NCBI GenBank assembly: GCA_045637805.1
Contig: JAZUAE010000012.1
Coordinates: 135,532 to 199,531, forward strand
Source: Clostridia bacterium
Lineage (GTDB): Bacteria > Bacillota > Clostridia > Christensenellales > UBA1242
Length of the DNA: 64,000 nucleotides
Reading direction: 5' to 3'
The number at the start of each line of letters is the position of its first letter. The stretch's first letter is position 1. The translations under genes were made by a program, and so were the position numbers. Below, piece after piece: positions 1 to 47,348 of the stretch. The notes under the pieces are model-generated. The model was not told the DNA's origin. It saw only the letters and a program-made list of their open reading frames with translations, and did no database searches.

Positions 1-3000
1 CATTTGCACTTAAAGATAAAGTAAACTCTTCATGGGCAGGTGAGACTGGAGAAGATGAGACAAAAGATATTGTTTACACTTGGAACATTGTTGTTAAAAA
101 ATATGCTAGACCTACAATAGATGCTAGCAAAAACTTTGTGTATGATAAAAGCGCAAAGAACGCTCCTGTTCTGGGTTTTGATGATCAAGCGATGAACTAT
201 ATTGCAGAATCATGTTTAACAGAGACAAATGCTGGAACATATTCGGTTATTGTTGAGCTTGACAGCACTTATGCTGGTAATATTGCTTGGGCAGAGGCTG
301 GTGACGAAACAGTATCTTTAATTTGGACAATTAGTAAGAAAATTGTTGCTAACCCAACAGCTGTTTCTAAAACTTATACATACTCAGGATCAGAGCAAAT
401 TTTTGCAATAAATGGCCTAACTGATGTAATGATTGTTAATGGTAACAAAAGAACTGACGCTGGCACAACCGAAGTTGCTGTTTCTTTAGTGAGCACAAGC
501 AACTATGAGTGGAAAACTCCGGTTGATGGTAATGTTGTTAAATTTGAATGGACTATAAATAAAAAGATTCTTACAAATCCAACAGCGGTGAATAAGATCT
601 ATACTTATACTGGATCAGAGCAAACTTTTGAAATGAATGGCATAACCGATGCTATGATAGTAAGTGGTGACAAGTTGACAAACGCTGGTTCAAGCGAAGT
701 TGCTGTTTCTCTAAATGATGCAAACAACTATGAGTGGAAAACTGCAGTTGATGGCAATGTTGTTAAATTCACTTTTGTTATCCAAAAAGCTCCAGCTGAA
801 GCTGTTGCACATAAAGTTTTATCTGGAACTTATGATCCGGACAAGACATTAGTTGATTATGTATTAGATTCAAATTATGTTTGGGTAGATAGTACAATTA
901 AACCAACTTGCGATGTTACACAGTATGCTGCGAAATATAATCCAGATTCTAGCAATTATACTGATACTACTGTATTTGTTACAATTAATGTTGCAAGAGC
1001 AACACTTGTAAAACCAGAGTTTGAGGCTCCAGACTTTACTTATGATGGAACTGAAAAAACTATTGAGTATACTGGCTTTGATGAAAACACGATGACTATT
1101 GCAAATGTGTCTAGAACAAATGCTGGAACATCTATCGCGACAGTTGCAATCAAGGATAAAGTTAACTATATGTGGGAAGACAGCACAGATGCTGATGTAA
1201 CTTTTGAATGGGAAGTTAAGAAGGCGCAAGCTGTAGCTCCTGTGGTTGAAGCAATGAGCGGAACTTATGATCCTGCAAAAACTTTAGCAGATTACGCTTT
1301 ACCTGCAGGCTTCGCATGGGTAGATCCTGAATCCACCCCAACTGTGCCTGTTAACAAGTATAATGCTAAATATAATCCAGATAGCGTTAACTATCTTGAT
1401 GCGAGTGTTGAAATTACTTTAAATATTGCTAAAGCTAATCCAACTGTACCAACAGTTGAGGCAATGAGCGGAACTTATGATCCAGCAAAAACCTTAGCGG
1501 ATTACGCTTTACCTACAGGCTTTGTTTGGGTAGACGAGGAAACTCTTCCAACAGTAGCAGTTAATAAATATGCAGCAACTTATATTCCAAGCGATATAGC
1601 TAACTACAATGTTATGAGCGCTGAAATCACAATTAACATTGCTAAAGCTAATCCAACTGTACCAACAGTTGAGGCAATGAGCGGAACTTATGATCCTGCA
1701 AAAACCTTAGCAAATTACGCTTTACCTACAGGTTTTGCTTGGGTAGACGGGGAAACTCTTCCAACAGTAGCAGTTAATAAATATGCAGCAACATATACTC
1801 CAAGCGATACAGCTAACTACAATGTTATGAGCGTTGAAATCACAATTAACATTGCTAAAGTACTTTTAACAAAACCTGACTGGAAAACAATAAGGTTCTC
1901 ATATAACAAATCAGAGCAATCTATTGAATTAAATAGCTACTTTGATAAAGATTTAATGAATATTTCAGGTAACACTGGAGTTAATGCTAACGACTATACA
2001 GCTATTGTTTCAATCAAAGACAAAGTGAACTACGCTTGGGCTGATGAAACAAATGATGATATTGAATTTGATTGGGTTATTACAAAATGCAAGCTTACAC
2101 AGCCATGGGCAATGCCTGATGGAGATGAGTTTACATATAACGGCGAAGAACACCAAGTTGTACTCTCTGAAACTTTTGATGCTGAGATAATGAACGTTAC
2201 TGGTAACAAAGCAACAGACGCTGGCACTTATACTGCTATAATTTCTATTAAAGAGGAATGCAAAGCAAACTATACTTGGATCGACTTCAAAGGAGAACCA
2301 GTGGAAGCCGATGTTGAAGTTGTTTGGGTAATCAATAAGGCAGTTGTAAACAGGCTATCTGGAACTTTTGAAACTGAATGGACAAGCGAAGAAATTACTT
2401 TTGTTCCGGAAGACTTTGACGACACAGTGTTTGATATTTCAGGAAACAAAGAAACTGAAATTAATACATACACAGCTACTATATCGCTAAAAGACACAAA
2501 GAACTATGTGTTTGATGATGGAACTTCATCTTCAACACTTGAATGGGCTATTACAAAAGCTACACCAACACTCGAATTTACCAAATCTCTTGATAAAGAG
2601 TATGATGGTTTTGGTTTGAACTATCCAAGATTTGAATTGAATGAATTGTATGAAGCTGAATTAATCGGACAGTATGGAGATGTTGTTTGTAATTTCGATT
2701 ATAAAAACTTAGACGATGAGATTTTGTATTATGCAAGCCAAATAACTGAGGTTGGAATATATAAAATATGCATGAGCTTTTTTGAAACAACTCACTTTAA
2801 ATCATTTACTGTTGATAAACAATTTTGTATATATCAAGTTGCAGATAGAAACCTTGTTAATTTCAATTTAAACTCATATCAATTCGAATATACAGGCGAC
2901 GAAATTAAACCAGAATTTACACTTACATTTAACATGACTGGCGAGCCTGTGGACCCTAGCTTATACACAGTTGAATATGTTGATAATGTAAAATATTGTA

Positions 3001-4817
3001 GTAAGGGCAAAATTGTTATTAAGTTTAACGCACCATATCGCGGAGAGATTTATGAAGAATTCCAAATTTTACCTGTAGCTGATGAAATGCTTGAAAGCGT
3101 AACAGTTGATGGACAGGTGGTAACAGGTGATACCGCTTACGTTGACACAGGCAAAGATACTGTTACTCTAACACTTAAACTAGCAGAGGCTTATAAAGAT
3201 GCTGCGGGACAGTTTTTGGTTATGGGTTCTAACTGTTATGGCGGCATTGCAATGACACCAACTGAGATTGATAATACAACCCTAACATTCACTCTTTCTA
3301 AGAACATAGCTGGCTTTGCTGTAACTTATGTAGAAAATGGAGTAGGTGCAGATGGTTGTTTGTGCACTCTTAATATTATGCCAAAAGAAGAGCTTCAAAA
3401 CGCTACATATATTGATATGAACTTTTTAAGTATAGGCGAGCATGGTATGCGCGAAAACGGTAGCTATAACTTCATTGAAATTGTAGAAGACAATGCTTTG
3501 GGTTTAAAAACAATACTTGTTAACGGTCTTGTTGGAGAGGAAAATGCTAGCAGAATTTTAGCTGAAGGGTATACTCTTTCTGAAGGTGGAATTGTGCTCA
3601 ATGTTGACGAGACAAAATTAACAATTACGCTTACAAAAGAAGATGCTGAAAACATAGTTTTAACTTATGACATTTATGATATGCGTGGTGTAGTATCTGT
3701 TCAATTGGACGAGGTTTTTGTGGATTCAATGGGAAAACCTGTATATTATTCATTTAACTCTTCTAATGAGCTTACAATCCCTAAATTTATAACAAATGGT
3801 GATACATTTAACATAACTATTAGTGATCGGGCAAGTGTTCGCGACTGGAAAGTTTATAAGGGTGACAAATTGTTCGACGAGTATGATATGGATAATGGTC
3901 GCTTAAGACATATTGAGTTTGGTGGCATTACTGAGGCTGGCAAGTATACAGTAAGGCTTTTCGTAGATGAAACTATATATGTTGATTACTATGTTAATAT
4001 CCAAGCTGTAGATGATACTCCAGCTTTCGAAATTACTTATGGCGGTAACAAATATTCATTAAATGAAACTATGACTGGTGGAATATTAATGAATTTCGGA
4101 TATGATGTTTACTTCTATATGTACTGCGGCCCAGTTGCTACGAGTGTGACTGAAATAACCATCTCAATCGATAGTATTTTAACTGATATTTTCGATAAAG
4201 ATATGCAAAAGTTTGCAAACCTTAAGGCTGCAAAACTTCAAGTTCTAAGCTCTGATGAAGGCAAATATTGTATGATTTATATCGGCTTTGATGGGGAAGT
4301 TGTGCCTTTATATATCTATCTATACAACGAGCCAGCTCAAAGTACTAGCACAAATATGGTAGACTTCACGATCGGGGACGTGGAATTTGGTTTTGATCTA
4401 GATTATACAACAACAACCGAAAATGGCTTTAATCGTTACTGGTTTGGAGATCTCTTCACATTGTATGATCCAACTGAGAAACTTGAAACTCAAAGTGTAA
4501 TAACACTTAATAAAACAATCAATCTTTCTGAAATGGGCGACTTTATGTATGGCAGGGATAATACCGTAACTGCAAAAGTTAAATTTTACAGCCAAGATGT
4601 GTTTATCTTTACTAATATGGCTTCAGTATCATCAGGTGTTGGCGCTTATACAGGAAAAGATGCGATTGAATTAGGCGTAGTGAAAGATGGTGGGGTATTT
4701 GACCCAACAGTAGACGTTCGTTATATGATTGATTTCATGATTAGTGTTTACGATATGGAAACTGGACTAAATCATAGATTCATGGTTATGCTTCGTATAA
4801 ATAACGACGTAGATTAA
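1..4817 (+). CDS. Large repetitive cell-surface protein, 5'-partial (MBG/Ig-like ~70-75 aa repeats)
   Basis: Frame 3 is open from nt 3 (FALKDKVNSSWAGETGEDETKDIVYTWNIVVKK...). It already shows the repeat motif, so the GTG at 138 in the ORF track is internal and the true start is upstream of the window. TAA at 4815-4817 is followed by a terminator. Repeats carry Y(T/S/D)G...NAGT...NY.W...W.I.K signatures typical of adhesin repeats. Confidence 0.85.
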   Translation, partial: FALKDKVNSSWAGETGEDETKDIVYTWNIVVKKYARPTIDASKNFVYDKSAKNAPVLGFDDQAMNYIAESCLTETNAGTYSVIVELDSTYAGNIAWAEAGDETVSLIWTISKKIVANPTAVSKTYTYSGSEQIFAINGLTDVMIVNGNKRTDAGTTEVAVSLVSTSNYEWKTPVDGNVVKFEWTINKKILTNPTAVNKIYTYTGSEQTFEMNGITDAMIVSGDKLTNAGSSEVAVSLNDANNYEWKTAVDGNVVKFTFVIQKAPAEAVAHKVLSGTYDPDKTLVDYVLDSNYVWVDSTIKPTCDVTQYAAKYNPDSSNYTDTTVFVTINVARATLVKPEFEAPDFTYDGTEKTIEYTGFDENTMTIANVSRTNAGTSIATVAIKDKVNYMWEDSTDADVTFEWEVKKAQAVAPVVEAMSGTYDPAKTLADYALPAGFAWVDPESTPTVPVNKYNAKYNPDSVNYLDASVEITLNIAKANPTVPTVEAMSGTYDPAKTLADYALPTGFVWVDEETLPTVAVNKYAATYIPSDIANYNVMSAEITINIAKANPTVPTVEAMSGTYDPAKTLANYALPTGFAWVDGETLPTVAVNKYAATYTPSDTANYNVMSVEITINIAKVLLTKPDWKTIRFSYNKSEQSIELNSYFDKDLMNISGNTGVNANDYTAIVSIKDKVNYAWADETNDDIEFDWVITKCKLTQPWAMPDGDEFTYNGEEHQVVLSETFDAEIMNVTGNKATDAGTYTAIISIKEECKANYTWIDFKGEPVEADVEVVWVINKAVVNRLSGTFETEWTSEEITFVPEDFDDTVFDISGNKETEINTYTATISLKDTKNYVFDDGTSSSTLEWAITKATPTLEFTKSLDKEYDGFGLNYPRFELNELYEAELIGQYGDVVCNFDYKNLDDEILYYASQITEVGIYKICMSFFETTHFKSFTVDKQFCIYQVADRNLVNFNLNSYQFEYTGDEIKPEFTLTFNMTGEPVDPSLYTVEYVDNVKYCSKGKIVIKFNAPYRGEIYEEFQILPVADEMLESVTVDGQVVTGDTAYVDTGKDTVTLTLKLAEAYKDAAGQFLVMGSNCYGGIAMTPTEIDNTTLTFTLSKNIAGFAVTYVENGVGADGCLCTLNIMPKEELQNATYIDMNFLSIGEHGMRENGSYNFIEIVEDNALGLKTILVNGLVGEENASRILAEGYTLSEGGIVLNVDETKLTITLTKEDAENIVLTYDIYDMRGVVSVQLDEVFVDSMGKPVYYSFNSSNELTIPKFITNGDTFNITISDRASVRDWKVYKGDKLFDEYDMDNGRLRHIEFGGITEAGKYTVRLFVDETIYVDYYVNIQAVDDTPAFEITYGGNKYSLNETMTGGILMNFGYDVYFYMYCGPVATSVTEITISIDSILTDIFDKDMQKFANLKAAKLQVLSSDEGKYCMIYIGFDGEVVPLYIYLYNEPAQSTSTNMVDFTIGDVEFGFDLDYTTTTENGFNRYWFGDLFTLYDPTEKLETQSVITLNKTINLSEMGDFMYGRDNTVTAKVKFYSQDVFIFTNMASVSSGVGAYTGKDAIELGVVKDGGVFDPTVDVRYMIDFMISVYDMETGLNHRFMVMLRINNDVD
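339..788 (+). repeat. Two tandem 225-bp (75 aa) coding repeats inside the surface protein
   Basis: The two units are KIVANPTAVSKTYTYSGSEQ...NVVKFEWTINK and KILTNPTAVNKIYTYTGSEQ...NVVKFTFVIQK. They are in phase and clearly homologous. Confidence 0.8.
1221..1856 (+). repeat. Three tandem 210/213-bp coding repeats (70-71 aa), the last two about 95% identical
   Basis: Units start at 1221, 1431 and 1644 (KA..VP.VEAMSGTYDPAKTLA.YALP.GF.WVD...). I count about 10 mismatches in 213 bp between units 2 and 3. A diverged fourth copy starts near 786. Confidence 0.85.
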
Positions 4818-17194: not shown

Positions 17195-19453
17195 ATGAAA
17201 CAAGTAGATAGTGAGCTTATTGCTCTTGAAAATGAGTTTGGTGACTGGTTTAACAAGGATAAATTTATAAGTCCTAAAATGACCAAAAAACTCTATCCTT
17301 ACCGTGAGATGTTTAAACCTATTAAGGTCAATAGTCTTGAGATAAAAAATAGAATCGTTATGGGACCTATGGGAAATGTTAATATGGCAGACGAAACGGG
17401 TAGACCTAGCGAAAAAATGATTAAATATTTCGAAGAACGTGCAAAAGGTGGCGTTGGACTAATTACTACAGGACTGGTGCCAACTACTTATGGTATTGAT
17501 AGTACAATTATTGAACAGGATAAATTGTCTTACTTTCCACGTGTCGACCGCAGCCGCACAAACCTTGTTGGGTGGAGAAATTTAGCTTATGCGGTGCATA
17601 ATCACGGGTCTAAGATATTTATTCAATTAACTGCGGGACTTGGGCGTGTAGGTAACCCTGAGTGCTTGATTAAGCAATTTAAACTCCCAGTATCAAGTTC
17701 TTGGAATCCTAATTTTTATATTTCAGCAATACCTTGTAGAAAACTTTCTGACGGGGAAATTAAAAAAATTATTAAAAAGACTGGTCAGGCTGCTGCAGAC
17801 AGTAAGGCGTGTGGTTTGGACGGGGTGTATTTACATGGACATGAAGGGTATTTAATTGAGCAGCTTACAAACCCTGCTTTTAACCGCAGAAAACTTGGTA
17901 GATATAGAAACTACAAGCAGTTTGGTATTGATTTAATAAAACACATACGTGAACGTGTTGGTGCTAAGTTTCCGATTATGTATAGAATTGATTTATCACT
18001 CATGCTTGGTGCAACCTATGGCGAGCGTTTAGGCAGCATTAAGCAATTAAAGAAGTTTAAAAACGAAAGGAGCATTGCTGAAACTCTAGAGTATATGAAA
18101 GATCTCGTTAAAGCAGGCGTTGATATGTTTGACGTAGATCTTGGCTGTTATGATAACTGGTGGTTGCCACACCCACCCTCATCTATGCCATCTGGTTGTT
18201 TCCTTGATATCAGTAAGATTGTTAAAGATTATTTTAAAGCAAACAATGTGCTTTCAAATGCTGGGTTTGAAGTTCCTGTTGTTGGTGTTGGTAAGCTTGG
18301 TTATCCAGATTTGGCAGAAAAAGCACTCAGAGATGAAAAATGTGATATGGTAATGCTTGCGCGTCCGTTACTCGCTGATAGTGAGTGGGTAAACAAGGCG
18401 TACAAAGGCGAAGTTGATTCTATTCGTCCTTGCATAGGTTGCCACGAGGCGTGCATAAAAGAGTTTGTTGAAGGTGGACATCCACAATGTGCTGTCAACC
18501 CATTAACGGCATTTGAAAGTGAACTTGGAAAATTATCTAAGGCTGAGAAAAGTAAAAGGGTGGCTGTGGTAGGCGCAGGCCCTGCGGGCATTATTGCGGC
18601 CAAAACTCTGATTGCTAGAGGACACTCGGTTGATTTATATGAAAAGAGTGCGAAAGTGGGCGGAACGCTTATCCCTGCATCGGTACCTAAAATTAAGTAT
18701 GAGCTTGCTAACTATGTTGCTTATCTTAATGGTCAGGTTAAGGTTTTACAAAAAGATAAGAAGTTTAAGCTTTTGCTTAAAACTCCTGCAACGGAAGAGA
18801 ATTTAAATGGCAAATATGATGCTATTGTTTTTGCAACAGGGTCATATATGTCGCAGCTTCCAGTACCTGGTGCTGTTCAAAAGCACGTTAAGACAACAGT
18901 TGAAGTTTTGTCTGACTTAAAGCTAATTGAAAAAGCTGATAACATTGTCGTTATCGGTGGCGGCGATGCTGGAGTTGAGGTCGCGTACTGTGCAGCTTAT
19001 GAGTACGGCAAAAATGTTTCAATTGTAGAACTTGAGCCTTATCTTATGAAACATACATGTACGGCTAATCGTGGGCACTTATTGCATTATCTAGAAAAGG
19101 CTGGGGTACAGGTGTACAACTGCTCTAGTGTTACCAAAATTGATGATGACAGTGTTGAAATCTTGCGTAACTTTAGCAAGACTGTTCCAAGTCCATTTAA
19201 TACTTGGACGCCAGTTCTTCCTGATAATATTAAGAACCCGCTTGCGCCAAAGATTCGCAAAGATATGCGTGCAATGTCGCTTCCAAGTGATCTTGTAATT
19301 GTGGCTGCGGGAACAAAATCAAATAATGAACTATATCAACAAGCTGTTCAAAATAGATATGCAAAAGAACTTTACAATGTAGGTGACAGTAATATTTGTG
19401 GCAAAGTTTACACAGCAGTAAAGTCTGCGTTTAATAAGGCAAGAGTTGTATAA
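17195..19453 (+). CDS. OYE-family NADH:flavin oxidoreductase fused to FAD/NAD(P)-binding domain (2-enoate / 2,4-dienoyl-CoA reductase-like)
   Basis: N-terminal TIM-barrel flavin oxidoreductase region, CIGCHEAC Cys motif, and dinucleotide folds VAVVGAGPAGIIAA and VVIGGGDAGVE; 752 aa. Confidence 0.85.
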   Translation: MKQVDSELIALENEFGDWFNKDKFISPKMTKKLYPYREMFKPIKVNSLEIKNRIVMGPMGNVNMADETGRPSEKMIKYFEERAKGGVGLITTGLVPTTYGIDSTIIEQDKLSYFPRVDRSRTNLVGWRNLAYAVHNHGSKIFIQLTAGLGRVGNPECLIKQFKLPVSSSWNPNFYISAIPCRKLSDGEIKKIIKKTGQAAADSKACGLDGVYLHGHEGYLIEQLTNPAFNRRKLGRYRNYKQFGIDLIKHIRERVGAKFPIMYRIDLSLMLGATYGERLGSIKQLKKFKNERSIAETLEYMKDLVKAGVDMFDVDLGCYDNWWLPHPPSSMPSGCFLDISKIVKDYFKANNVLSNAGFEVPVVGVGKLGYPDLAEKALRDEKCDMVMLARPLLADSEWVNKAYKGEVDSIRPCIGCHEACIKEFVEGGHPQCAVNPLTAFESELGKLSKAEKSKRVAVVGAGPAGIIAAKTLIARGHSVDLYEKSAKVGGTLIPASVPKIKYELANYVAYLNGQVKVLQKDKKFKLLLKTPATEENLNGKYDAIVFATGSYMSQLPVPGAVQKHVKTTVEVLSDLKLIEKADNIVVIGGGDAGVEVAYCAAYEYGKNVSIVELEPYLMKHTCTANRGHLLHYLEKAGVQVYNCSSVTKIDDDSVEILRNFSKTVPSPFNTWTPVLPDNIKNPLAPKIRKDMRAMSLPSDLVIVAAGTKSNNELYQQAVQNRYAKELYNVGDSNICGKVYTAVKSAFNKARVV

Positions 19454-19478
19454 AAGTAAAAAGATTTCACTTTTATAA

Positions 19479-19635
19479 ATGAAGATTCCTTACGGACATG
19501 AAAGTTGCTAGTCGCAACATGGTTGACCCTTGGTAAATTTCTGCCTTTATGCAAACTGAAAGTTTGCACTTAATGGCGAGCGAATGTGAGCATCTTCATT
19601 AGTGTGGCGGCTTCATGTGTTTTAGCACTCTTAAT
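19479..19635. repeat. Heptamer-plus-hairpin mosaic repeat, ORF-less copy (both arms abutting)
   Basis: Left arm: ATGAAGA-ttccttacggac-ATGAAA-GTTGCtagtcGCAAC-ATGG-ttgacccttggtaa. Centre: GCAAACT-gaa-AGTTTGC. Right arm: ggcgagcgaatgtgagca-TCTTCAT-tagtgtggcggc-TTCAT-gtgttttagcac-TCTTAAT. The modules match those at 47206-47301 and 47714-47813 in reverse order. Confidence 0.8.
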
Positions 19636-19662
19636 TAAAAAAAGACCCTTTCGGGTCTTTTT
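19636..19662. terminator. Bidirectional terminator
   Basis: A7, AGACCC-TTTC-GGGTCT hairpin, T5. Sits between convergent genes. Confidence 0.8.
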
Positions 19663-20506
19663 ACATTTCTGGTTCATCTTCTTCGTTTGTGCTAGCTTTG
19701 CATTTTGTAAATGAAGATTGAGTTCTTGGTGTAACTTCAATTATTGATTCTTCGTACTTTGTAGTAGATGTTGTGAATGTGTTTTGAGTTGGGATTGTAG
19801 TGCGATCTTTTGAAGAATCCTTGCTTGTGTCAGTTTCAACTAAACATTTTAGGTCGTTATAAAAAGGGTGGTCTTTTGGAATAAATGTTAAGATGTCGCT
19901 GCCAAATATTGAAATTTGTTGTATTAATAATCTTGTAGGCAATGATTTAATGCATCGATTAAAATCTGCTTGGCCTTTTTCTGCTGCTTCTTTTGTAGAA
20001 AACATTGTGTTCAAGTCTACAATATTGCTTGAAATTTTTAAAATGTTATTAGAACTATATGTTCTTATTAATTTTTCTATAAATTCTGGATTTACAGCAG
20101 CTTCGTAATAATTTTCAAGAATATCCTGTATGTCCTCATCGTTATAATTAGGATAAGGTCCGCTTTTTATTTTGCCATCAAGATATGCGAGCATTAAATT
20201 TACATTCTTTTGATGTTCAATATTTTCTGGGCTAACAGGGTAGTAAATGGTCATAACAGGTTTTGTGTTGTAAAGTTTTTCCATAAAATTAGCATCATTT
20301 GTGTGAGCTTTTGATAATTGAACTTTATGAAAATTAGATTTTATGTCGCTAATGTAATTTATTATTTTATTGTCAATGGTTTGAGGGCTGTCAGTGAGCT
20401 TAGCACCGGCATTTGTTAACAATTTTACATATCTTCTTGTGTTTAGCAGTTGTTGTTTTTCTGCTTTCTTTTGCTCTTTAGCTAAGCGTATAATTTTTCT
20501 TTTCAT
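19661..20506 (-). CDS. Hypothetical protein (281 aa)
   Basis: AAGGAT RBS, ATG start, TAA stop. Last gene of a three-gene minus-strand cluster with two GNAT genes. Confidence 0.65.
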   Translation of the reverse strand: MKRKIIRLAKEQKKAEKQQLLNTRRYVKLLTNAGAKLTDSPQTIDNKIINYISDIKSNFHKVQLSKAHTNDANFMEKLYNTKPVMTIYYPVSPENIEHQKNVNLMLAYLDGKIKSGPYPNYNDEDIQDILENYYEAAVNPEFIEKLIRTYSSNNILKISSNIVDLNTMFSTKEAAEKGQADFNRCIKSLPTRLLIQQISIFGSDILTFIPKDHPFYNDLKCLVETDTSKDSSKDRTTIPTQNTFTTSTTKYEESIIEVTPRTQSSFTKCKASTNEEDEPEM

Positions 20507-22767: not shown

Positions 22768-23757
22768 TTGGATACACAAAAGATAAAAAATCAAGACAGG
22801 GAAAATACAATCCTTGGTCGTGGAATTGCAGGCAAAGAAACTCAAATTGAGAGTGATAACACTCTCACTTTTTCTGATTCCAAAAAAGAAAAAAAGCCTT
22901 TTGTTTTAAAAAGGTTTTTAGTCAATATTATTGTTGTTATTGCTCTTGCTGTTTTCTCTGGTGTGCAAGTGGGTTTGTTTTATCTTGACACCTTTGTAAA
23001 GTCTTATGCACCTCCATCTGTTGCTGAGGAGTCTATTCGTGATGATACACTTGCCATATATTCTTCCAGTGTGGGCAAGTCTCCTGATGAGCTATCTGCA
23101 ATCAATGCTGTGATTGTGGCTGATTATCTTTTGACAAAATCAACCTCTGTTCAAAAAACTGTTTATGGTAAAGTTGTGGCGATGGGTGTAACTCAGGAAA
23201 TGTCTGCAGTGAAAAAGAGAGTTGGGGATAGGATTTATTCTGAAAAACTTTCTACCGGAATTTTAAGTGTTGGTAACGCTCATTATCATACACTTGGCAG
23301 CAATCTTTTTGAGTTTTATCAAGGCTCTAATGTTACAATTAATAGCGCTACTTGGCCAAGCAGTCCAAACTATACTTGGAGCTATGACGAATATATTTCT
23401 CATTTCAAGAGCAAGCCGGAATATTTCATCAATTACATCATTAGTAGCAAGACTGTTCAGGCAGCATCTATGACAAAAACTAGTGATGGAAACTTCAAAG
23501 TTTCCCTTGACCTTGACGCTGTTTATAGTGTTATAAATTATGTTTATGAAATTCGTGAAACATCGGGATCGTCTAAGTTTCCAAACTTTAAATCAGTACA
23601 TTTGGATATTGTGATGGACTCTGCATATCGCATTCTTACAATAGACATAAACGAACTTTATGATGTTGCTGTTGCTCAGCTCGGTGGTGGTTATGTTGAA
23701 ACCCGCGCTATAATGCAAGAGAAATTTTCATACGAGGGGGTAGTGATAGATGGCTAA
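22768..23757 (+). CDS. Membrane-anchored protein (329 aa), translationally coupled to the 2295-aa protein
   Basis: TTG start behind AAAGGG. One TM (FLVNIIVVIALAVFSGVQVGLFYL). The stop overlaps the next start (ATGGCTAA, 8-nt overlap). Candidate TTGCCA-17-TATACT promoter near 22709. Confidence 0.7.
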   Translation: MDTQKIKNQDRENTILGRGIAGKETQIESDNTLTFSDSKKEKKPFVLKRFLVNIIVVIALAVFSGVQVGLFYLDTFVKSYAPPSVAEESIRDDTLAIYSSSVGKSPDELSAINAVIVADYLLTKSTSVQKTVYGKVVAMGVTQEMSAVKKRVGDRIYSEKLSTGILSVGNAHYHTLGSNLFEFYQGSNVTINSATWPSSPNYTWSYDEYISHFKSKPEYFINYIISSKTVQAASMTKTSDGNFKVSLDLDAVYSVINYVYEIRETSGSSKFPNFKSVHLDIVMDSAYRILTIDINELYDVAVAQLGGGYVETRAIMQEKFSYEGVVIDG

Positions 23758-26700
23758 GAAACGAAAAAAGCTATTTAGCAAGACCGCTCTTGTTTATGTG
23801 CTCACATTTTTTGTTGTTACATTTTGTACAGCGTTTTTAACTGTGACTGTTAATTATGACAATTATCTTTTAAACAATTCGTCTAATCTTATGGCAAATA
23901 CTGGCAATGCAGGATCGTCTGCGTTGTCTACAACCATTTCTAACCTTATGAGCATTACTGGTGGAAATGTGAATGTGTCGATGTCTGCCGAAAGTGAAGA
24001 GGGTGAAAGTTTAGACATTGACGCTAACATTAAGCTCAAAATGCAGGGTGGACTTGATGGGTTTGAATGCAGCATTGATCTTGTACTCTATTTTAATGAT
24101 GAGCCTTTTGTTTTAAGGGTGGCTTGCATTAAAGGAATGGTATATATATCCGTAAATGATTCACACTTAAAGTTTAAGGCTGACAAATTTACGGACACTA
24201 TAGTTGGAATACTTGGCGTTGTTGGAATGGGCGCGGACGGTGCTGCTAGTATCGCATCTATGTTTGATATGAACTCTCTTATGAGTATTGCGTCATCTAT
24301 TCGCGAAGTTGCAATGGATAACGGTACAAGCCTCAAGGTTGAGGACGCAAACATGAACGTTTCAATGAATGTCGACGATAATTATATGTTGCAATCGGTT
24401 GATATATCTAGCATTGCCGTTGGTGGTTACACCGCATCAGGTGCAGTTACTATGAGTGACATTAACTCATCTAACATTGTGATCGAAACCCCATTAGATG
24501 ATACCGATTATGAAGACATTTCAGTGCCTATCAGGCTGTTTAGTGCGATTGCAAGTCTTTCAAACATGGACTTTGTTGCTGATGCTAGGGTAGACGCTTT
24601 AGGTGCAACTATTGATAGCAAGATTATTTATGATAAAAATCGCAACATCGGTAAGGTGAGCGTTGGCGCTGGTGCACTCGATTTTGATATTTATTTTAAT
24701 AATGGATCATTCTATCTAAACTCTAACAATGCGAAAATAAAAGCTGAAGATTTATCTGCTACAAGCTTTATTGCTGGACTCGGTGTTCTTTCAAATGAGG
24801 TGGGTAGCTACAGCGAAAGTGGAACAGCGTTCGACGCTTCGACTTTAACCAAACTTGATTTATCTAAGATTTTTAATCACTTCACGCTTGATGGTGACAA
24901 GATAAAGGTTTCTATGCTGCCGCAAGATATTTATTTTACACTAGACAGCAGTGACAAAATAACCAACATTTCGACAAATGGCGACATTTCTTGCAATATT
25001 GATTTCTCTTACACTGATCAATCAATTTACTTTGATGATTTTGGATATGTTCCGATTCAGGAAATGAACTGGGTGCTTAAACCTATTATGAATTTCTTGC
25101 AGGCAAGGCAGTTTAGTGCAACCATTGAATTTGACTATGGCGAGCTTTCAGGTGAGCTTATGATACGTGTTGACCTTGCAGATAGAAGAGCAATTCAGAT
25201 AAATACTGAGCTCTTTGGTAAGAAAATCGAAGTTATTGTTGAGGAGGATTATATACTCCTTCGAATTGATAAAGAGTCTACTAAAATAAGAAGTCAAGAT
25301 TCATTACTACTCGCACTTGCTATATTTGATAAATTCTCTGGCGAGATTGAAATTGATACTGCCATTAATATCCAAAATGTTTTGGATAACGCGATGCAAC
25401 TTGTTTTTGCCGATAAAAATGCACTCTTAATGCAGGGTAAAAATTCACGTCTTCAATATTCAGCTGATGGAACGATCTTGTTTGAAGGAGTTATCCTTGA
25501 CAAAAACCTTAGACTATTTATAGATATTGATAAAACCCCACGCAAAATCCGCGATTATGCGTTGAATCTTTATAGCGATTTTGTGTTTACGTCTGAGCTT
25601 GCACAAAACACTATCAACTATATCAATGGTAAGGTTTATAACTTTAGCATTTCGGGCGAGTATGATGGTAACAAGGTAGATGCTAAAATATTTGCAGACT
25701 TAAACGATTCAAGGTACGTTCTGGATATATCTTTTAATAATGAAAGTGTCAACATTGTTTGTCAAGACGACGTGTATTATGTTCAGTATCGTCAGTTTAA
25801 GTTCTATGGCAACCTAGAAAGCGCAATGGGATTACTTTGCAGCGCAATATCTGCATCTTCTGCTGATAAAAAGCTCGCGTCATCTATTGAAAGCATAGTG
25901 GCTGAGTTTGCTGCAAATATGCAAGATGTCGATATAATTGACGTTATAACAGGTATCAAAATAGGTGAGATTAATATAGCTGATAACAGCTTTGAAATCT
26001 CAATGGAAAAACTTGCTGGGCTTGAAAAAGTACTCGATATCCAAAATATTAAATTCAAACTTGTAACAGAGCAACACAATATAAAAACTGTTGGTGTGGA
26101 TTGTAAGGACACCAAACTTCAAATAGGCATTTCTAAGAAAATTGAGCCAAGGCTCACTGAAACTGAAATGGCAGCATACACAATCAGTTTAGACGACTTG
26201 TACGCTCTTGCAATTAATACTTATGATTATGTTCAAGGCGGTGCGTATATATTTGATATCTTCGCAGAGTATAACCAGTACTCAGTTGAGGGTAAACTTA
26301 GTGTTATAAATAGCGCTCTATTAGCCGACATTGCAATTAACATTCAAGGCGAAGAGGTGTTTGTAAAAATACTTGAAGGTAATATGTATATTAACTATGC
26401 AAACCTTGCATTTATAGCAGACCTTAATGATTTAGGTTTACTCATGAGTATTGCAAACAAGCTTGGTATTAACATAACTGAGAAAGATTTAGTTGGATTA
26501 ATGGGTCAACTTTTAGGCGCTTCTAAGTTAAAGTTTGGTGAAAACTCATTTGCTGAATTACTTAGTAAAATAAGCATAGACAAAATCGTGTTTAATAGAA
26601 ATGAAAGCAAATACAATGTAGGTTATGGCTACTATTTATTTACAGTTAATGCAGTTGACAACAAACTCAGCGGTGTTTCAACAAATATGCTTGGAACTGC

Positions 26701-29700
26701 TGTACAAATAACGCTTAGTGATGCATTTGACGTAACCCCTGTTGGTGACTATGTTGCTGTTAGTGACATCTTAAAAATTCTTTCAAATGAAATTGACTAC
26801 GCTAAAGGTGACATGGCGTTTAATATTGATTTTGAACTTAATGGCAAGCCTATAAACGGTAAGATTTACGTTTCAGGCGGAGTAGCTTCGGCTGTTATCC
26901 AAACTAAAGTTATGGGTCAAAAGTTTGAAGTTAAACTTATAGGTGATACACTTTACTTTGATATTAATGGTCTCAAGATTAGAGGCAATGCTTCCGATTA
27001 TGATAAGCTGTCATATATTGTCAATAAGTACACGGGCATTAATCTTCCAAGCATTACATCATTTAATATTAACGAAATCTACGAATTCTACAATGAGCTT
27101 ACTTTATTCGCTGAAAATAATCTTGGATTAAAATTGCCAGAAATTGATAAGTCTAATGTTGAAGAAAATATCGATCCATTAATGCTTCTTGGCGCATTGA
27201 AAAACTTAATAATTTCAAACACTGATGAAGGATACGGAATAAGTCTTGGCGGTCAAACTGTTTATGTAGAAACTGATAATGATAAGTTTGTAGGCTTATT
27301 TACAAATATTGCTGGCACAAACGTTAGCGCTTATAAAGATGATTTTGTAAAACTTACAGTTAACAAAGATTCGTTCATGATTGCGTCAGATGTAATTAAT
27401 GTTGTAGATAAGACAGTTAATACGCTTTCAACTAAGTGCATGACTGGGGAGATAGATTTATACTTCTACTTTGAGGGTATACAGCACAAGGTTGAAATTG
27501 ATTACAACATCAACTTTGAGAACTTGAATGATATTAGGGCAAAGATTAATGCTAAATTCAAGGGCGTTGATGCTGAAATTATTTATATAGATAAAATACT
27601 TTACATTAATGCTGCAGGACTTAAGTTCTATGCAAACATTGATGATTATAAGGATATCCTAGACTTTGTTCGCACAAGGTTTGGTGTTGAAACAGGTATT
27701 GAGGATATGCTTGATGAAATTACTCAAAACTTTAAAAACTTCGAATTTATTGAAGGTTGGATCTTTGACGATAAAGCTTCTGAGTTTAGTTTGAAGGGTG
27801 GACTTAAAATAGGACTAAACTACAGTGTTGATAAGATTTCATCAGTTGACTTTGCTCAAGGTTTAACGAGTGCACACATTACTCTTACACCTCCAGAGGA
27901 AATGGTTACTATTTCGGAGGTTACAGGTAATTATATTCATTATTCTGAAATCTTTGACTTAATCGATACAGTGATTTCAATGGGTGATGAAGAAGGCTTT
28001 AGTGTTAACGCGAATGCTACAGTATTCGAGGGTGAAAATGTAAAATTTGACATAGGTATTGACCTTGATTTAACAATCAAGAATATGTTAGGTTTCTATG
28101 GCAACGCAAAAGTTAAAGACGGAAATGATAAATTGTTATATGATGTTGAGGTTGCTCTTGAAAATCAAACAATTTATGTAGACTTTGACGGCCTCAGACT
28201 TGCAATGCATCAAAATAGCTTGCGTGAAATTTTTGTAATCGGGCTTTCAGTGCTTGGCATTGATGCCACAAGTATACCTTGGCTCAACGCTGTAGACGAA
28301 GAGTTTAAGGTGGTTCCAGAAAACTTGAAGAATATTATACCTGTATTAAAACTGGATACGCTTGGTATGATTTCAATAATTCAGTCTATGAGCTTTGAAA
28401 ATGAGATATTTGAAATTACACTCAAAGGTGAATTAATTTCAGAGCAGTCTACAAGACCTATGACTATTTCAATCGATTTCACTGGTGGTCAAATTAACTC
28501 TATTAATCTAGTTGATATTTATACTGGTGTAACTGATAGCGAATATTTTAATCTTTACCTTGAATTTGAAGAATTTGATTCAGTTCCTGTTATTGATAAG
28601 GTTGATGAAAATGGTAGAAAGTTTAACGATATCTCTGATTCAAGCGACTTGTTTAAGGCACTAATCAATACAACCGAACTCAATGATTACACAATTAATG
28701 GTACAGTTACATTCAACGCTGTTGATTTAATAAACATGAATATATTTGTTGAAGCGACAGTTAAGAAAATTGCAGATAGTTTCTACGCTGAAATTAATCT
28801 TTCAAACATTCCCGTTATTTCTTTATTAAACGGTACATTAGGAAAGACTATTAAAGATAGACGATTTAGTATTTATATGTACGACAACATTGTTTATTTA
28901 CATAGAACTGAGTATGAATATATTGACCATTGGTTCAGCGAAGACGAGTATATATTAATAGAAAAGAAACTCGCTATAACCATGGAGCAGTTCATGGGTG
29001 ATATGCTCGATTATATTATGTGCTTTGGTTTAGGATTTAAAGAAGATGGCAAGATAATGGAAGCAATTTATGCTTCAATAAAACAGCGTCCAGCAAACGA
29101 CCCTATTGACTTGGGTAACGTACTTGAACATTATGAGAAAGATGTGAATGGATTGCATTACTTGATTTTAAACATGAAAGAGATTGCATACAACAACGAC
29201 TTAAAAACTTTATCTGCTTGGATAGGTACAGTTAACTCGGCTGATACAGGGAATAAAGATTATGTTGGATTATTAAAGTTTGCTCTTGATATGCAGGTTA
29301 TGGGATTTGCCAACCTTAAGCTTTCGTCAAATGACTTACAGCTTATTAATATAGGAAAAGATGCAGATGTAAGCTATGCCGTTGATTATATCAATTCATA
29401 CAAATATAAGCTTGGTGAATGTTATGTAATATCTAATGGCAAAGAAACTTTGGAGTCTAACCTTACATACTTTGCATACTTCTATAACGGCACAGAGATT
29501 GTAAGAACTCAGGAGCTCAATACTGGCGAGGCATTAGATTTATCTGGTGTAAACAAGCCTGACGCTTATATAGGCGAAGTTAAGTACGCTTATACATTCA
29601 ATGGTTGGTACACAGACGCTGAATGCACTAAACTCTATACACAAACAACAATGCCTACCGGTGGAATAGCTCTTTATGCAGGCTTTACGCCAACAGCTTA

Positions 29701-30637
29701 TAGGTATGTGTACTTTGATGAGCAGGGTGGTGGATATGTTGATTATATTTGCACCCTTGCAGGAAACACTGTTCAAATCCCAACTCTTGCAAATAAGTTT
29801 GAAACAATAGGTGCTTACACTTATGAATATAAGCATGTCGGTTGGGTATTTGAAGGTGAAACTTACATTGACAGCTTTATACTCCCAGACAAAGACGTAA
29901 TACTTGTAGCCGAGTGGGAGTATGTGGGTCAGACTGCTGCAACTGCGCTCCTAACCATTGTGTTTGGTGACGGAAGCAAAGTGGAAGACAGAATTGAAGT
30001 GGGAACTACAATCAACTTTAGTCAATATGATGGCGTAGTATCTACGACAAAATTCTATAAAGATAACGCATTTACAACTTTAAACGATGTCACAGTAATG
30101 CCTTTTGAAAATATTGTACTATACGCTGCAAACGTTTATACTATTACGTTTAGTACTGGAACAAATCAAAAGGTAATTGAAAAAGAAGCCTATGAGGGTG
30201 AAAATGTATATCTTGAAACAAATGTCACAAGAGCGTACTACGATGATGGCTCTGTTAGAATAGATTATACATTCCTTGGTTGGTACTTTGCTGATGATGC
30301 TGACACGCTCTATAATGGATCGATAAAAATGCCAAACGGCGGCGGTCAATTGATTGCCAAGTGGAGAGAAACAACTAGAAATTATGTTACTATATCTTTC
30401 AAAGTTGATACAATCAGATCAATATACACCTGGCACTACTCAGCTGCGCCAACATCTATAAAATGGCTTGAGGGTGAGTATTTTGAAATAACTGTTCCGC
30501 AACCTACTGCTTATAGAAATAAACTATTTGGTGGTACCCAAAATGCAACATTCAAAGGCTGGAAGTATAACGGCTCAGTTGTTCCTGGATTCTATGTAAA
30601 TGGTAATACAACTCTAGAAGCTTCATGGAGTACTTAA
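23750..30637 (+). CDS. Giant surface protein (2295 aa): N-terminal TM anchor, ~9 repeats of a ~190-aa module, C-terminal Listeria-Bacteroides (InlB B-repeat type) repeats
   Basis: GAGGGGG RBS. TM segment ALVYVLTFFVVTFCTAFLTVTV. Recurrent module ending in ...LY(I/V/F)..(N/D)G.K.....(D/E)...L. C-terminal Y.V.FD..GG...F.GW....L.A.W units (e.g. YTFNGWYTD, TFLGWYFAD, TFKGWKYNG). Confidence 0.85.
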   Translation: MAKKRKKLFSKTALVYVLTFFVVTFCTAFLTVTVNYDNYLLNNSSNLMANTGNAGSSALSTTISNLMSITGGNVNVSMSAESEEGESLDIDANIKLKMQGGLDGFECSIDLVLYFNDEPFVLRVACIKGMVYISVNDSHLKFKADKFTDTIVGILGVVGMGADGAASIASMFDMNSLMSIASSIREVAMDNGTSLKVEDANMNVSMNVDDNYMLQSVDISSIAVGGYTASGAVTMSDINSSNIVIETPLDDTDYEDISVPIRLFSAIASLSNMDFVADARVDALGATIDSKIIYDKNRNIGKVSVGAGALDFDIYFNNGSFYLNSNNAKIKAEDLSATSFIAGLGVLSNEVGSYSESGTAFDASTLTKLDLSKIFNHFTLDGDKIKVSMLPQDIYFTLDSSDKITNISTNGDISCNIDFSYTDQSIYFDDFGYVPIQEMNWVLKPIMNFLQARQFSATIEFDYGELSGELMIRVDLADRRAIQINTELFGKKIEVIVEEDYILLRIDKESTKIRSQDSLLLALAIFDKFSGEIEIDTAINIQNVLDNAMQLVFADKNALLMQGKNSRLQYSADGTILFEGVILDKNLRLFIDIDKTPRKIRDYALNLYSDFVFTSELAQNTINYINGKVYNFSISGEYDGNKVDAKIFADLNDSRYVLDISFNNESVNIVCQDDVYYVQYRQFKFYGNLESAMGLLCSAISASSADKKLASSIESIVAEFAANMQDVDIIDVITGIKIGEINIADNSFEISMEKLAGLEKVLDIQNIKFKLVTEQHNIKTVGVDCKDTKLQIGISKKIEPRLTETEMAAYTISLDDLYALAINTYDYVQGGAYIFDIFAEYNQYSVEGKLSVINSALLADIAINIQGEEVFVKILEGNMYINYANLAFIADLNDLGLLMSIANKLGINITEKDLVGLMGQLLGASKLKFGENSFAELLSKISIDKIVFNRNESKYNVGYGYYLFTVNAVDNKLSGVSTNMLGTAVQITLSDAFDVTPVGDYVAVSDILKILSNEIDYAKGDMAFNIDFELNGKPINGKIYVSGGVASAVIQTKVMGQKFEVKLIGDTLYFDINGLKIRGNASDYDKLSYIVNKYTGINLPSITSFNINEIYEFYNELTLFAENNLGLKLPEIDKSNVEENIDPLMLLGALKNLIISNTDEGYGISLGGQTVYVETDNDKFVGLFTNIAGTNVSAYKDDFVKLTVNKDSFMIASDVINVVDKTVNTLSTKCMTGEIDLYFYFEGIQHKVEIDYNINFENLNDIRAKINAKFKGVDAEIIYIDKILYINAAGLKFYANIDDYKDILDFVRTRFGVETGIEDMLDEITQNFKNFEFIEGWIFDDKASEFSLKGGLKIGLNYSVDKISSVDFAQGLTSAHITLTPPEEMVTISEVTGNYIHYSEIFDLIDTVISMGDEEGFSVNANATVFEGENVKFDIGIDLDLTIKNMLGFYGNAKVKDGNDKLLYDVEVALENQTIYVDFDGLRLAMHQNSLREIFVIGLSVLGIDATSIPWLNAVDEEFKVVPENLKNIIPVLKLDTLGMISIIQSMSFENEIFEITLKGELISEQSTRPMTISIDFTGGQINSINLVDIYTGVTDSEYFNLYLEFEEFDSVPVIDKVDENGRKFNDISDSSDLFKALINTTELNDYTINGTVTFNAVDLINMNIFVEATVKKIADSFYAEINLSNIPVISLLNGTLGKTIKDRRFSIYMYDNIVYLHRTEYEYIDHWFSEDEYILIEKKLAITMEQFMGDMLDYIMCFGLGFKEDGKIMEAIYASIKQRPANDPIDLGNVLEHYEKDVNGLHYLILNMKEIAYNNDLKTLSAWIGTVNSADTGNKDYVGLLKFALDMQVMGFANLKLSSNDLQLINIGKDADVSYAVDYINSYKYKLGECYVISNGKETLESNLTYFAYFYNGTEIVRTQELNTGEALDLSGVNKPDAYIGEVKYAYTFNGWYTDAECTKLYTQTTMPTGGIALYAGFTPTAYRYVYFDEQGGGYVDYICTLAGNTVQIPTLANKFETIGAYTYEYKHVGWVFEGETYIDSFILPDKDVILVAEWEYVGQTAATALLTIVFGDGSKVEDRIEVGTTINFSQYDGVVSTTKFYKDNAFTTLNDVTVMPFENIVLYAANVYTITFSTGTNQKVIEKEAYEGENVYLETNVTRAYYDDGSVRIDYTFLGWYFADDADTLYNGSIKMPNGGGQLIAKWRETTRNYVTISFKVDTIRSIYTWHYSAAPTSIKWLEGEYFEITVPQPTAYRNKLFGGTQNATFKGWKYNGSVVPGFYVNGNTTLEASWST

Positions 30638-34721: not shown

Positions 34722-34807
34722 TGGTGCCGGTAGTCGGGGTCGAACCGACATGAAGTTTCCCTCGGCAGATTTTGAGTCTGCTGCGTCTGCCATTCCGCCA
34801 CACCGGC
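34722..34807 (-). tRNA. tRNA-Leu (anticodon CAA), CCA encoded
   Basis: Reverse complement is GCCGGTGTGGCGGAATGGCAGACGCAGCAGACTCAAAATCTGCCGAGGGAAACTTCATGTCGGTTCGACCCCGACTACCGGCACCA. It has a 7-bp acceptor stem, anticodon loop CTCAAAA, a long variable arm and a GGTTCGA T-loop. Confidence 0.92.
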
Positions 34808-35351: not shown

Positions 35352-35437
35352 GCGAGGATGGCGGAATCGGTAGACGCGCTCGTTTAAGGGGCGAGTGGTT
35401 AACAGCCGTGAGAGTTCGAGTCTCTTTCCTCGCACCA
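35352..35437 (+). tRNA. tRNA-Leu, anticodon AAG by canonical hand fold, CCA encoded
   Basis: GCGAGGATGGCGGAATCGGTAGACGCGCTCGTTTAAGGGGCGAGTGGTTAACAGCCGTGAGAGTTCGAGTCTCTTTCCTCGCACCA. Acceptor GCGAGGA/TCCTCGC. Anticodon stem CTCGT/GCGAG leaves loop TTAAGGG (U33, A34-A35-G36, G37). Long variable arm and TTCGAGT T-loop. Confidence 0.85.
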
Positions 35438-47160: not shown

Positions 47161-47205
47161 AAAAGTTTCCGGTAGGTACTTTTTTGTATATAAATATAGG
47201 TAATA

Positions 47206-47301
47206 ATGAAGACGCTCACAGATGTTCGCTATGAAGCCGCTACGCTAATGACGAGGCTCAATTCTTTCGCCATGAAGAGCAAACTGAAAGTTTGCATGAA
47301 G
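47206..47301 (+). repeat. Heptamer-plus-hairpin mosaic repeat, 5' arm (ATGAAGA orientation)
   Basis: ATGAAG(A) at 47206, 47231, 47272 and 47296, with a truncated ATGA at 47248. The heptamers are separated by 11-20 nt segments. The last segment is the perfect hairpin GCAAACT-GAA-AGTTTGC (47279-47295). Confidence 0.85.
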
Positions 47302-47348
47302 TCAAGAAAATTATACCATTTAAAAATTCAAAAGGATAAATAAAATAA

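Follow-up and report, generated by a model that had tools for sequence, protein, structure and literature searches.

A compact palindromic repeat without an open reading frame in a Clostridia genome, a probable member of a Gut-1-related element family

Gut-1 (Rfam RF01706) has been reported from human-gut metagenomes only, as a likely noncoding RNA with covariation and as an orphan, with no function and no gene association (PMC2864571). The element considered here lies at 19.5 kb in a stretch of 64,000 nucleotides from a Clostridia bacterium (contig JAZUAE010000012.1, positions 135,532 to 199,531; "the window" below). It is confirmed as a real copy, lacking an open reading frame (ORF), of a palindromic repeat element made of heptamers and small hairpins, and is on balance probably a complete but decaying compact copy of a Gut-1-related repeat family that is associated with terminators and multiplies in genomes. 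The family shares with Gut-1 the arrays of a heptamer of (R)UGAAAU type with short hairpins bearing UUCG-like loops, the occurrence in gut metagenomes, the frequent position right after a terminator, and the reverse-complement heptamers, which in Gut-1 lie in the flanks of the seed. It differs in that the Rfam model comprises only three hairpins from a single arm, and in that the window copies use ATGAAGA, not GUGAAAU.

Other described systems offer partial parallels. The intervening sequences (IVS) of 23S rRNA are inserted in helix 9, 25 or 45 and excised from the precursor by RNase III; to our knowledge, the origin and mobility of those that contain an ORF have been unexplained since 1990. 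ORF-bearing IVS with terminal inverted repeats are described in the 23S rRNA of Leptospira, Coxiella and Brucella, and the S23p family of their proteins is a homopentamer of four-helix bundles (PMC4990558). A longer copy of the present element, at 47.2-47.8 kb, has an ORF of the same protein family (PF05635, a pentameric four-helix bundle) enclosed, in this copy only and by predicted fold, by long terminal inverted repeats forming a stem. Forms with and without the ORF, a sporadic distribution suggestive of mobility, and an ORF that is often poorly expressed or decayed are further likenesses. In contrast to the IVS, the window element lies outside rRNA, flanked by protein genes and terminators; its arms are modular arrays of heptamers and hairpins rather than a simple 28-bp stem; and in relatives the ORF is mostly outside the arms. 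PF05635 also resembles Avd, a protein of diversity-generating retroelements (DGRs; PMC10053308). Avd has a homologous pentameric four-helix-bundle fold and is the nucleic-acid-binding partner of a structured RNA in a retroelement, but neither a reverse transcriptase nor a template/variable repeat pair was seen beside the loci examined here. We know of no role for the four-helix-bundle "IVS protein" family outside DGRs.

The repetitive extragenic palindromic (REP) sequences of proteobacteria have a wholly conserved hairpin and are tied to a RAYT (Y1 transposase) gene. With REP, BIME and REPIN sequences the element shares short extragenic palindromic units made of a conserved word and a hairpin, their grouping in direct and inverted clusters, a position at gene ends and terminators, and a multi-copy, non-coding nature. 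Here, however, only the heptamer is conserved, the hairpins vary, and the linked gene encodes a four-helix bundle (about 15 window proteins were scanned with profiles). Correia, RUP and BOX, modular repeats or miniature inverted-repeat transposable elements (MITEs) of Neisseria and Streptococcus, are likewise small and non-coding, with inverted-repeat arms, multiple intergenic copies and presence/absence differences, and in BOX, too, the internal modules vary in number and the predicted fold is strong. The present element differs from these in having no cognate transposase, termini that are not inverted repeats and a putative target duplication; its heptamer-hairpin period of ~19 nt and its four-helix-bundle gene have no counterpart there.

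Compact and long copies in the window

The original prediction held that the left and right halves of the short copy (19479-19635) equal the reverse complement of the two arms at 47.2-47.8 kb, without the ORF segment between them, and this is borne out: read on the - strand, the modules are the same and in the same order. The alignment it had proposed (blastn, word size 7, 19454-19662 against the reverse complement of 47190-47860) gave two colinear blocks at 81% identity, query 26-87 to subject 88-151 (E 7e-12) and query 81-163 to subject 548-630 (E 5e-17). Together they cover 19479-19616 of the short copy and skip subject 152-547, ~396 bp with the ORF segment. The local score of 48 (left half 36, right half 45) compares with a mean of 12.3 and a maximum of 24 in 1000 dinucleotide-preserving shuffles, and with 18 for a same-strand control. 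Both blastn and the shuffle test thus establish the copies as homologs in inverted orientation, colinear apart from the ORF segment. A purely fortuitous likeness between AT-rich intergenic sequences might be entertained in a window of ~35% G+C where single heptamers are common (ATGAAGA occurs 30 times), but it is extremely improbable beside these scores, E-values and colinearity and the recurrence of the same architecture in ~60 independent loci.

A short direct repeat, TTA(T)ACC, stands at either end of the ORF segment: the junctions read aaaATTATACC (left) and aaaGTTACC (right) in the long copy and aaaTTTACC in the short one. The repeat fits both the gain of an ORF cassette, by insertion into the central loop of a compact unit, and the loss of one by deletion. 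The layout across the family, described below, would make the compact unit the older form; the event in this window is left without a direction.

With a third, truncated copy absent from the original prediction, the family has three loci inside a 30-kb part of the window (Table 1), and relaxed scans of the window for heptamer clusters gave no further copy. The third copy begins 16 nt after the T-run of a terminator (49721-49750), and its AT-rich leader, agatataaatatatta, resembles that of the long copy's left arm, gtatataaatataggtaata. Gut-1 is characterized by three or more short hairpins set apart by a repeated UGA-containing heptamer, and in all three window copies heptamers of the ATGAAGA type take turns with palindromes. 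The short copy has four forward-type heptamers, ATGAAGA, ATGAAAG and two degenerate ones as read on the - strand, and the reverse-type heptamers ACTTAAT, TCTTCAT, CTTCAT and TCTTAAT, with small palindromes in between; two heptamers are degenerate (ATTAAG) on one side, and two or three are good on the other. A hairpin similar to its GCAAACT-gaa-AGTTTGC module, gcaaacaagtttgc, was found at a related locus (L012). It had been suggested that the left and right heptamers of the short copy can still pair with each other. They do so in the minimum free energy fold, where ~19478-19486 pairs with ~19593-19600, but the copy as a whole folds no better than its shuffles (z -1.1 on the + strand, -1.8 on the - strand). 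The long copy, in contrast, has a predicted fold in which the arms pair along their length around the ORF (z -3.7).

The short copy lies between the stop codon of gene 17195-19453 and its terminator, so it is presumably transcribed as the 3' untranslated region of that gene; a promoter scan gave no promoter-like site above chance at the copy. The terminators adjoining the short and long copies (19638-19662 and 47828-47858) were missed by a consensus terminator scanner because their stems get extended into A/T tracts, and were called from an inverted-repeat search and the sequence itself. A blastn search with the short copy against a plasmid collection gave no match.

Table 1. Coordinates of the three copies and their adjoining features in the window (R1, covariance model of the family; see text).
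Feature	Positions	Strand	Basis or remark
A/T-rich hairpin TATAAAAGT...ACTTTTATA	19449-19477	.	covers stop codon (19451-19453) of upstream gene; abuts first heptamer
TAAAAAGA	19457-19464	+	direct repeat of TAAAAAAAGA at 19636-19645; candidate 8-bp target duplication or terminator A-tract
Short ORF-less element	19465-19635	.	sequence; match to long copy; empty site in L101
Short copy, heptamer ATGAAGA	19479-19485		
Short copy, hairpin TTCCTTACGGAC	19486-19497		
Short copy, heptamer ATGAAAG	19498-19504		
Short copy, hairpin GTTGCtagtcGCAAC (module GTTGC-tagtc-GCAAC)	19504-19518	.	kept in long copy, 47733-47747
Short copy, hairpin GCAAACTgaaAGTTTGC (module GCAAACT-gaa-AGTTTGC)	19551-19567	.	kept in long copy, 47279-47295
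Short copy, heptamer ACTTAAT	19568-19574		
Short copy, heptamer TCTTCAT	19593-19599		
Short copy, CTTCAT	19611-19616		
Short copy, weak hairpin GTGttttagCAC	19617-19628		
Short copy, heptamer TCTTAAT	19629-19635		
Bidirectional intrinsic terminator (AAAAAGACCC tttc GGGTCTTTTT)	19638-19662	.	common to convergent genes 17195-19453 (+) and 19661-20506 (-)
Long copy, left arm: ATGAAGA, ATGAAG, ATGACGA, ATGAAGA, ATGAAG with palindromes between, including GCAAACTgaaAGTTTGC at 47279-47295	47204-47313	+	sequence; R1 17.2 bits, E 0.017
Pseudogene of four-helix-bundle protein (PF05635/TIGR02436)	47349-47698	+	72% identity to P0001; TGA and frameshift
Long copy, right arm: four TCTTCAT on + strand (47748, 47767, 47786, 47807)	47714-47815	-	sequence; R1 23.3 bits, E 2.8e-4
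Long copy, right-arm hairpins: GTCCgataGGAC, CGCgttaGCG, TATCgtcaGATA, GTTGCgtctaGCAAC, plus ACCgtaaGGT	between TCTTCAT copies		
Bidirectional terminator adjoining right arm	47828-47858	.	sequence; A-tract TAAAAAAG (47828-47835) recurs at 47158-47165, the element's other end
Third, truncated copy ATGAAGA-GTCCtaacGGAC-ATAAAGA-GCGatgtttCGC (two heptamers, two hairpins)	49767-49804	+	sequence

The ORF of the long copy matches PF05635 (23S rRNA intervening sequence protein) over 47349-47651 with E 1.9e-25; its assignment to TIGR02436 ("four helix bundle protein") comes from its homologues. The closest of these are 72-66% identical and typically 117 aa long, and the closest solved structure is PDB 2RLD (five chains, E 7e-31). 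The reading frame is disrupted twice. Codon 22 is an in-frame TGA (47412-47414) where all homologues have Leu, likely a change from TTA, and a frameshift near 47640 puts the last 17 residues, with the C-terminus CLNIRVLLIKSCKTAQN and the stop at 47698, in another frame. The ORF is a pseudogene by these two lesions, or else they are sequencing errors. Genetic code 4, which the in-frame TGA might suggest, was rejected: an in-frame TGA is missing from 33 of the 37 long ORFs, and code 11 gives intact genes. The window reads as a low-GC Firmicute chromosome (PolA, DegV, SDR and GNAT genes, ~35% G+C); its nearest named DegV comes from Christensenellales, at 60% identity. Profile searches found no transposase, recombinase or nuclease domain in the ORF, and a PADLOC search with its protein gave no match. 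That the 47-kb copy is an autonomous-looking master, as had been proposed, is not upheld, since its ORF belongs to PF05635 and to no known transposase family, and is disrupted.

The window also holds very large ORFs without an in-frame TGA, at 51771-63917 (-; 4048 aa), 23750-30637 (+; 2295 aa) and 138-4817 (+; 1559 aa). A related contig (L104) has a 7128-aa gene at the place corresponding to a large window ORF.

Layout, fold and kinship of the family in relatives

A homology search with a query of this protein clade gave 6990 matches at E<=1e-5, and loci were gathered from 10 contigs with the two best homologues, from 80 metagenome loci and from 16 viral-contig loci. In nearly all loci with enough upstream sequence, the most enriched hexamer whose reverse complement is also present is ATGAAG, ATGATG, GTGAAG or GTGATG. 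The forward heptamers, three to five copies 18-20 nt apart, lie at -220 to -140 from the ORF start, and the reverse-complement ones, also three to five but 20-26 nt apart, at -130 to -30. The arms are thus arrays of RTGAWG / CWTCAY heptamers alternating with hairpins. A unit of ~150-190 nt has three to five copies of a heptamer RTGAWGN (ATGAAGA in this genome), each directly followed by a hairpin of 10-16 nt, and on its other side three to five complementary heptamers, each with a hairpin before it, such that the arms look alike when read inward. Within one element a single heptamer word is used throughout, with varying hairpins in between, and the three window copies keep the same word.

Both arms are upstream of the ORF in 57 of the 66 non-redundant metagenome loci with at least 260 nt of upstream sequence, a linkage that counts ORF-carrying loci only, the loci having been collected through the ORF. 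The ORF lies between the arms, as in the window's long copy, at just one of the 66 (L051). The ORF is therefore a neighbor of the compact unit and not its core, and the layout with the ORF inside is the exception. Because of the 57 loci, the compact ORF-less layout is also to be regarded as the canonical unit, contrary to the earlier suggestion that the short copy is a deletion derivative.

Tandem or partial duplicates occur among the relatives. L082 has two units in a row with a 22-codon ORF stub between them, in L057 a unit is cut off by another terminator and unit, L025 has a second 5' arm after the ORF, and L113 has tandem Gut-1 units. A reading of L082 as a nested insertion was downgraded to tandem partial duplication because the truncated first ORF (residues 1-22) does not resume downstream. 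At this locus (874-939) the first ORF copy stops after residue 22, where a remnant terminator, cttGTCaggtaGACAAAAG, and the second element start. The TGA of the window pseudogene is at the same codon 22, within TGACAAAAAC, which may be due to chance or mark a recombination hotspot.

Members of the protein family also occur in other genomic surroundings. The best cultivated relative in the plasmid collection is a distant, unannotated four-helix-bundle gene of Monoglobus pectinilyticus (L125; NZ_OY725736.1 80879-81217; 45% identity), part of a type I restriction-modification operon in which its neighbors are hsdS and hsdR. Only ~70 nt separate it from hsdS and nothing there resembles heptamer arms, so it is uninformative on the element. 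A pattern scan of genome contigs with ATGAAGANTCCTNNCGGACAT was discarded as a source of further copies: its 10 matches were all single, two of them in Neobacillus coding sequence (L007 and L009) and the rest in unrelated phyla.

The relation to Gut-1 comes from the relatives. In a permissive Rfam scan, Gut-1 falls exactly on their 5' arms, at scores (37.4, 34.6 and 30.7 bits; range 24-37) below the RF01706 gathering score of 50 bits. One locus, L113, exceeds it: two tandem elements with the heptamer GTGAAA reach 72.9 and 69.4 bits. They immediately precede a PF05635 ORF that has 54% identity to the query profile, and their 3' arms match RF01706 on the opposite strand with 38.4 and 37.3 bits. 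The Gut-1 seed alignment itself contains upstream terminators, downstream reverse heptamers and tandem copies. In the window, a covariance model built only from the relatives' 5' arms (R1) gives its best and second-best scores to the arms of the long copy, at 47815-47729 (-), over its full length, and at 47204-47266 (+), as listed in Table 1; read inward on the - strand, the right arm therefore fits the family's 5'-arm model from end to end. A weak match at 4061-4127 (15 bits, E 0.067), inside the 1559-aa ORF and with three AATGA-type words, is probably due to chance. Profiles run with nhmmer also ranked the two window loci first, with weak E-values of 0.005-0.4. On these comparisons the element appears related to Gut-1, as a broad-sense member of a Gut-1-like family of two-armed heptamer-hairpin repeats.

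The spacers between heptamers form hairpins far more often than expected. Stems with a score of 4 or more are present in 41 of 89 unique spacers of the 5' arm (2.1 in shuffles) and in 75 of 103 of the 3' arm (4.5 in shuffles). These hairpins abut the heptamers directly, and their stems vary between units and between loci. Most 5'-arm loops are TTC, TGC or TAC with a closing C-G pair (UNCG-like), and those of the 3' arm are mostly the reverse complements of these, GAA, GCA, GTA or AAA. On either strand the relatives' elements have folds far better than those of shuffles (mean z -4.3 and -4.0). In RNAalifold consensus structures the forward heptamers pair with the reverse ones, with compensatory A/G and A/T changes. 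Since every heptamer in an element is the same word, covariation is silent on which forward copy pairs with which reverse copy, and one DNA word present in two orientations would equally give this pattern. Two further helices covary. The first hairpin (hp1) is paired in 97% of cells, with 16 double changes, and a long-range helix (P1), in which a central segment pairs with the first heptamer and the 5' strand of hp1, in 95%, with 23 double changes. Both are conserved and they are mutually exclusive (alignment A3, columns 9-14/23-28 and 5-14/107-116), in an attenuator-like arrangement. P1 is absent from the window copies. This covariation shows selection on the hairpins in a single-stranded state, either RNA of one or the other strand or single-stranded DNA.

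These helices bear most directly on a reading of the family as a functional RNA of the Gut-1 class, whether a cis leader of the four-helix-bundle gene acting through P1 and hp1 or a protein-binding small RNA, with the copies as gene duplicates and not mobile DNA. Gut-1 is called a likely noncoding RNA with covariation by Rfam and by Weinberg et al., 2010 (PMC2864571), UNCG-type loops dominate the 5'-arm hairpins, and two alternative covarying helices on one strand recall attenuators and riboswitches. In several relatives, moreover, the ORF starts 10-20 nt after the last heptamer, leaving no room for a separate promoter. Several results nevertheless argue against a conventional one-strand RNA gene. 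No strand asymmetry was found, either in the folding gain from G-U pairs (-5.3 vs -5.0 kcal/mol on the two strands, p 0.69) or in the counts of G:T and A:C in P1 and hp1 (11 vs 6, no clear excess). The loops of the two arms are reverse complements of one another, and Gut-1 matches both strands. A strong hairpin, usually an intrinsic terminator, ends 0-3 nt before the first heptamer and leaves no promoter space there, and the short copy has no promoter-like site above chance. The window copies lack P1, the short one folds like its shuffles, and the elements are absent from orthologous sites. The RNA reading is a possibility of some substance, though an improbable one. RUGAUGA could also be taken for a box C/D or k-turn motif, but this was dismissed, since its partner heptamers complement it exactly by Watson-Crick pairing and are not CUGA.

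Genomic sites of the elements

In the window, each of the three copies is found either between the end of a gene and an intrinsic terminator or directly after a terminator, the long one flanked by a helix-turn-helix gene on one side and DegV on the other. Among the relatives, 32 of the 45 with enough flank follow a same-strand tRNA or transfer-messenger RNA (tmRNA) gene whose end is no more than 120 nt upstream; 15 tRNA identities and a tmRNA are represented, so the unit has come to lie behind many different genes. The terminators 30-60 nt before the first heptamer have an inner stem, TTTGTC...GACAAA, in common at nine loci (L030, L043, L058, L080, L087, L045, L068, L017 and L047). That this stem recurs behind different tRNA genes suggests that the terminator may travel with the element rather than having been in place beforehand. 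At L100 (28-378 and 410-578), an element with its ORF immediately follows a tmRNA gene, a classic target of integrative elements. The window has two divergent tRNA-Leu genes, 34722-34807 (-) and 35352-35437 (+), by ARAGORN (Rfam at gathering score found the first only), with no heptamer element behind either, and no rRNA by Rfam scan.

The original prediction called for a presence/absence comparison of orthologous intergenic regions. The element is indeed missing from relatives at the sites of all three copies, but what could be compared were species (flanking genes at 85-89% amino-acid identity), not strains. At the site orthologous to that of the short copy (L101, oxidoreductase 87% identical), convergent genes are 41 bp apart and have only a bidirectional terminator, taaTAAAAAAGAACTCCaaacGGAGTTCTTTTT, at 4766-4806, the equivalent place to the terminator beside the short copy; the letters of this empty site, taaTAAAAAAGAACTCC, include one A-tract of the type that flanks the element. 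The sites of the long and third copies hold terminators or unrelated sequence only in L103, L104 and L107 (DegV 85-89% identical). As related species hold only terminators at these sites, the three elements have been either gained or lost, and insertion in this lineage fits. In L103 (3960-4260), a different direct repeat of ~100 bp (tttttgaccttattaaacttttattatcaaatttt...) lies downstream of DegV in place of the heptamer element.

Direct repeats of 8 bp flank both complete copies, TAAAAAGA / TAAAAAAAGA the short one and TAAAAAAG / TAAAAAAG the long one. They look like target duplications of the terminator A-tract but are ambiguous, as A-tracts belong to every terminator. The outermost bases of the inserted segments form no inverted repeats, although the arms are inverted heptamer arrays.

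These sites, with the colinearity of the copies, are what a model of a 47-kb autonomous master with a mobility ORF, mobilizing a MITE-like internal-deletion derivative at 19.5 kb, would have in its favor: exactly the ORF segment is missing, and TTA(T)ACC marks the place where the halves join; the arms run in opposite orientations; the orthologous sites of related species are empty; each complete copy stands between 8-bp direct repeats; and an old proposal makes the IVS ORFs a mobility factor (cited in PMC4990558). What survives of it is that the family is repetitive, is gained or lost, and has forms with and without the ORF. The ORF, however, is no known mobility gene but a 117-aa four-helix bundle without transposase, recombinase or nuclease domain, and a pseudogene here. 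The compact form is no derivative, being intact with the ORF outside it in 57 of 66 loci, where no deletion is needed. The segment ends are not inverted repeats, and the flanking repeats are terminator A-tracts. As a whole the model is unlikely.

The same positions could instead reflect a domesticated, terminator-proximal element of REP/BIME type that stabilizes convergent 3' ends or reinforces bidirectional termination, with the four-helix-bundle gene as a bystander. Besides the placement of all three window copies, its quasi-symmetric design, with the same fold on both strands, would suit convergent genes. It leaves unexplained the strict linkage to one PF05635 clade (57 of 66), the single heptamer word of each element and the preference for tRNA and tmRNA genes, and relatives live without the element at these sites; on this evidence it is quite unlikely.

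The reading as a Gut-1-related family of mobile repeats has its own points against it. Loss in the relatives may also account for the empty sites, since the comparison spans species, and the 8-mer of the flanking repeats, itself terminator A-tract, occurs 24 times in the window. Beside none of the copies was a transposase, recombinase or reverse transcriptase seen. The kinship of the short copy itself is indirect: Rfam Gut-1 does not recognize it (RF01706 has no match at E<=10 in 19380-19720 or 47100-47900, and a whole-window scan at gathering threshold gave only a tRNA), R1 gives it just 10.2 bits (E 1.7), and only the 81% identity with the long copy places it in the family. When the window arms were compared with the relatives by blastn, nothing reached E<=1e-3, and the best relevant match, to L012, was marginal (E 0.003). 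The collection of the relatives through their ORF also counts here. In its behavior the element resembles repetitive DNA, being gained or lost, and is apparently unlike a single-strand RNA gene.

Proposed mechanism and significance

A working model for the Gut-1-related repeat family starts from a single-stranded form, either a transcript of one or the other strand or single-stranded DNA, in which the heptamers would pair as rungs of 6-7 bp and the spacers would extrude as hairpins, giving a rod of stacked junctions. In the long copy the ORF would lie within this rod, an arrangement known from 23S rRNA intervening sequences. The units would then multiply and rearrange at terminator-proximal sites by machinery supplied in trans. 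The uniformity of the heptamers beside the diversity of the hairpins points to a sequence-specific trans-acting partner of this kind. With the heptamer word constant within an element and across the three copies while the hairpins differ, the pentameric four-helix-bundle protein would be the best candidate, and its binding to the element is put forward as a hypothesis. That the arrays and an S23p/Avd-like pentamer form one selfish nucleoprotein system, in which the protein recognizes the modules and promotes their copying next to terminators and tRNA or tmRNA genes, is a tentative and rather doubtful extension.

In this genome the family seems to be decaying, given the broken ORF, the two degenerate heptamers of four on one side of the short copy, and a short-copy fold at the level of shuffled sequence. 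For the window itself the meaning is accordingly modest: its copies would be relics, with a broken ORF, degenerate heptamers and a weak fold.

For the family it may be wider. One clade of IVS-type proteins almost always has a two-armed Gut-1-like element upstream, usually just after a tRNA or tmRNA gene and its terminator, which ties together Gut-1, an orphan in Rfam since 2010, and the four-helix-bundle "IVS protein" family. A literature search found no prior report of a linkage of Gut-1 to PF05635 or to tRNA and tmRNA genes, of its two-armed palindromic layout or of its lack of strand bias. A selfish nucleoprotein system, if that is what the two form, would give the Gut-1 motif a partner and a biology. 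The form with the ORF in the loop would then be a free-living counterpart, and a possible source, of the ORF-containing 23S rRNA IVS, and so suggests a possible link to the origin of these sequences.

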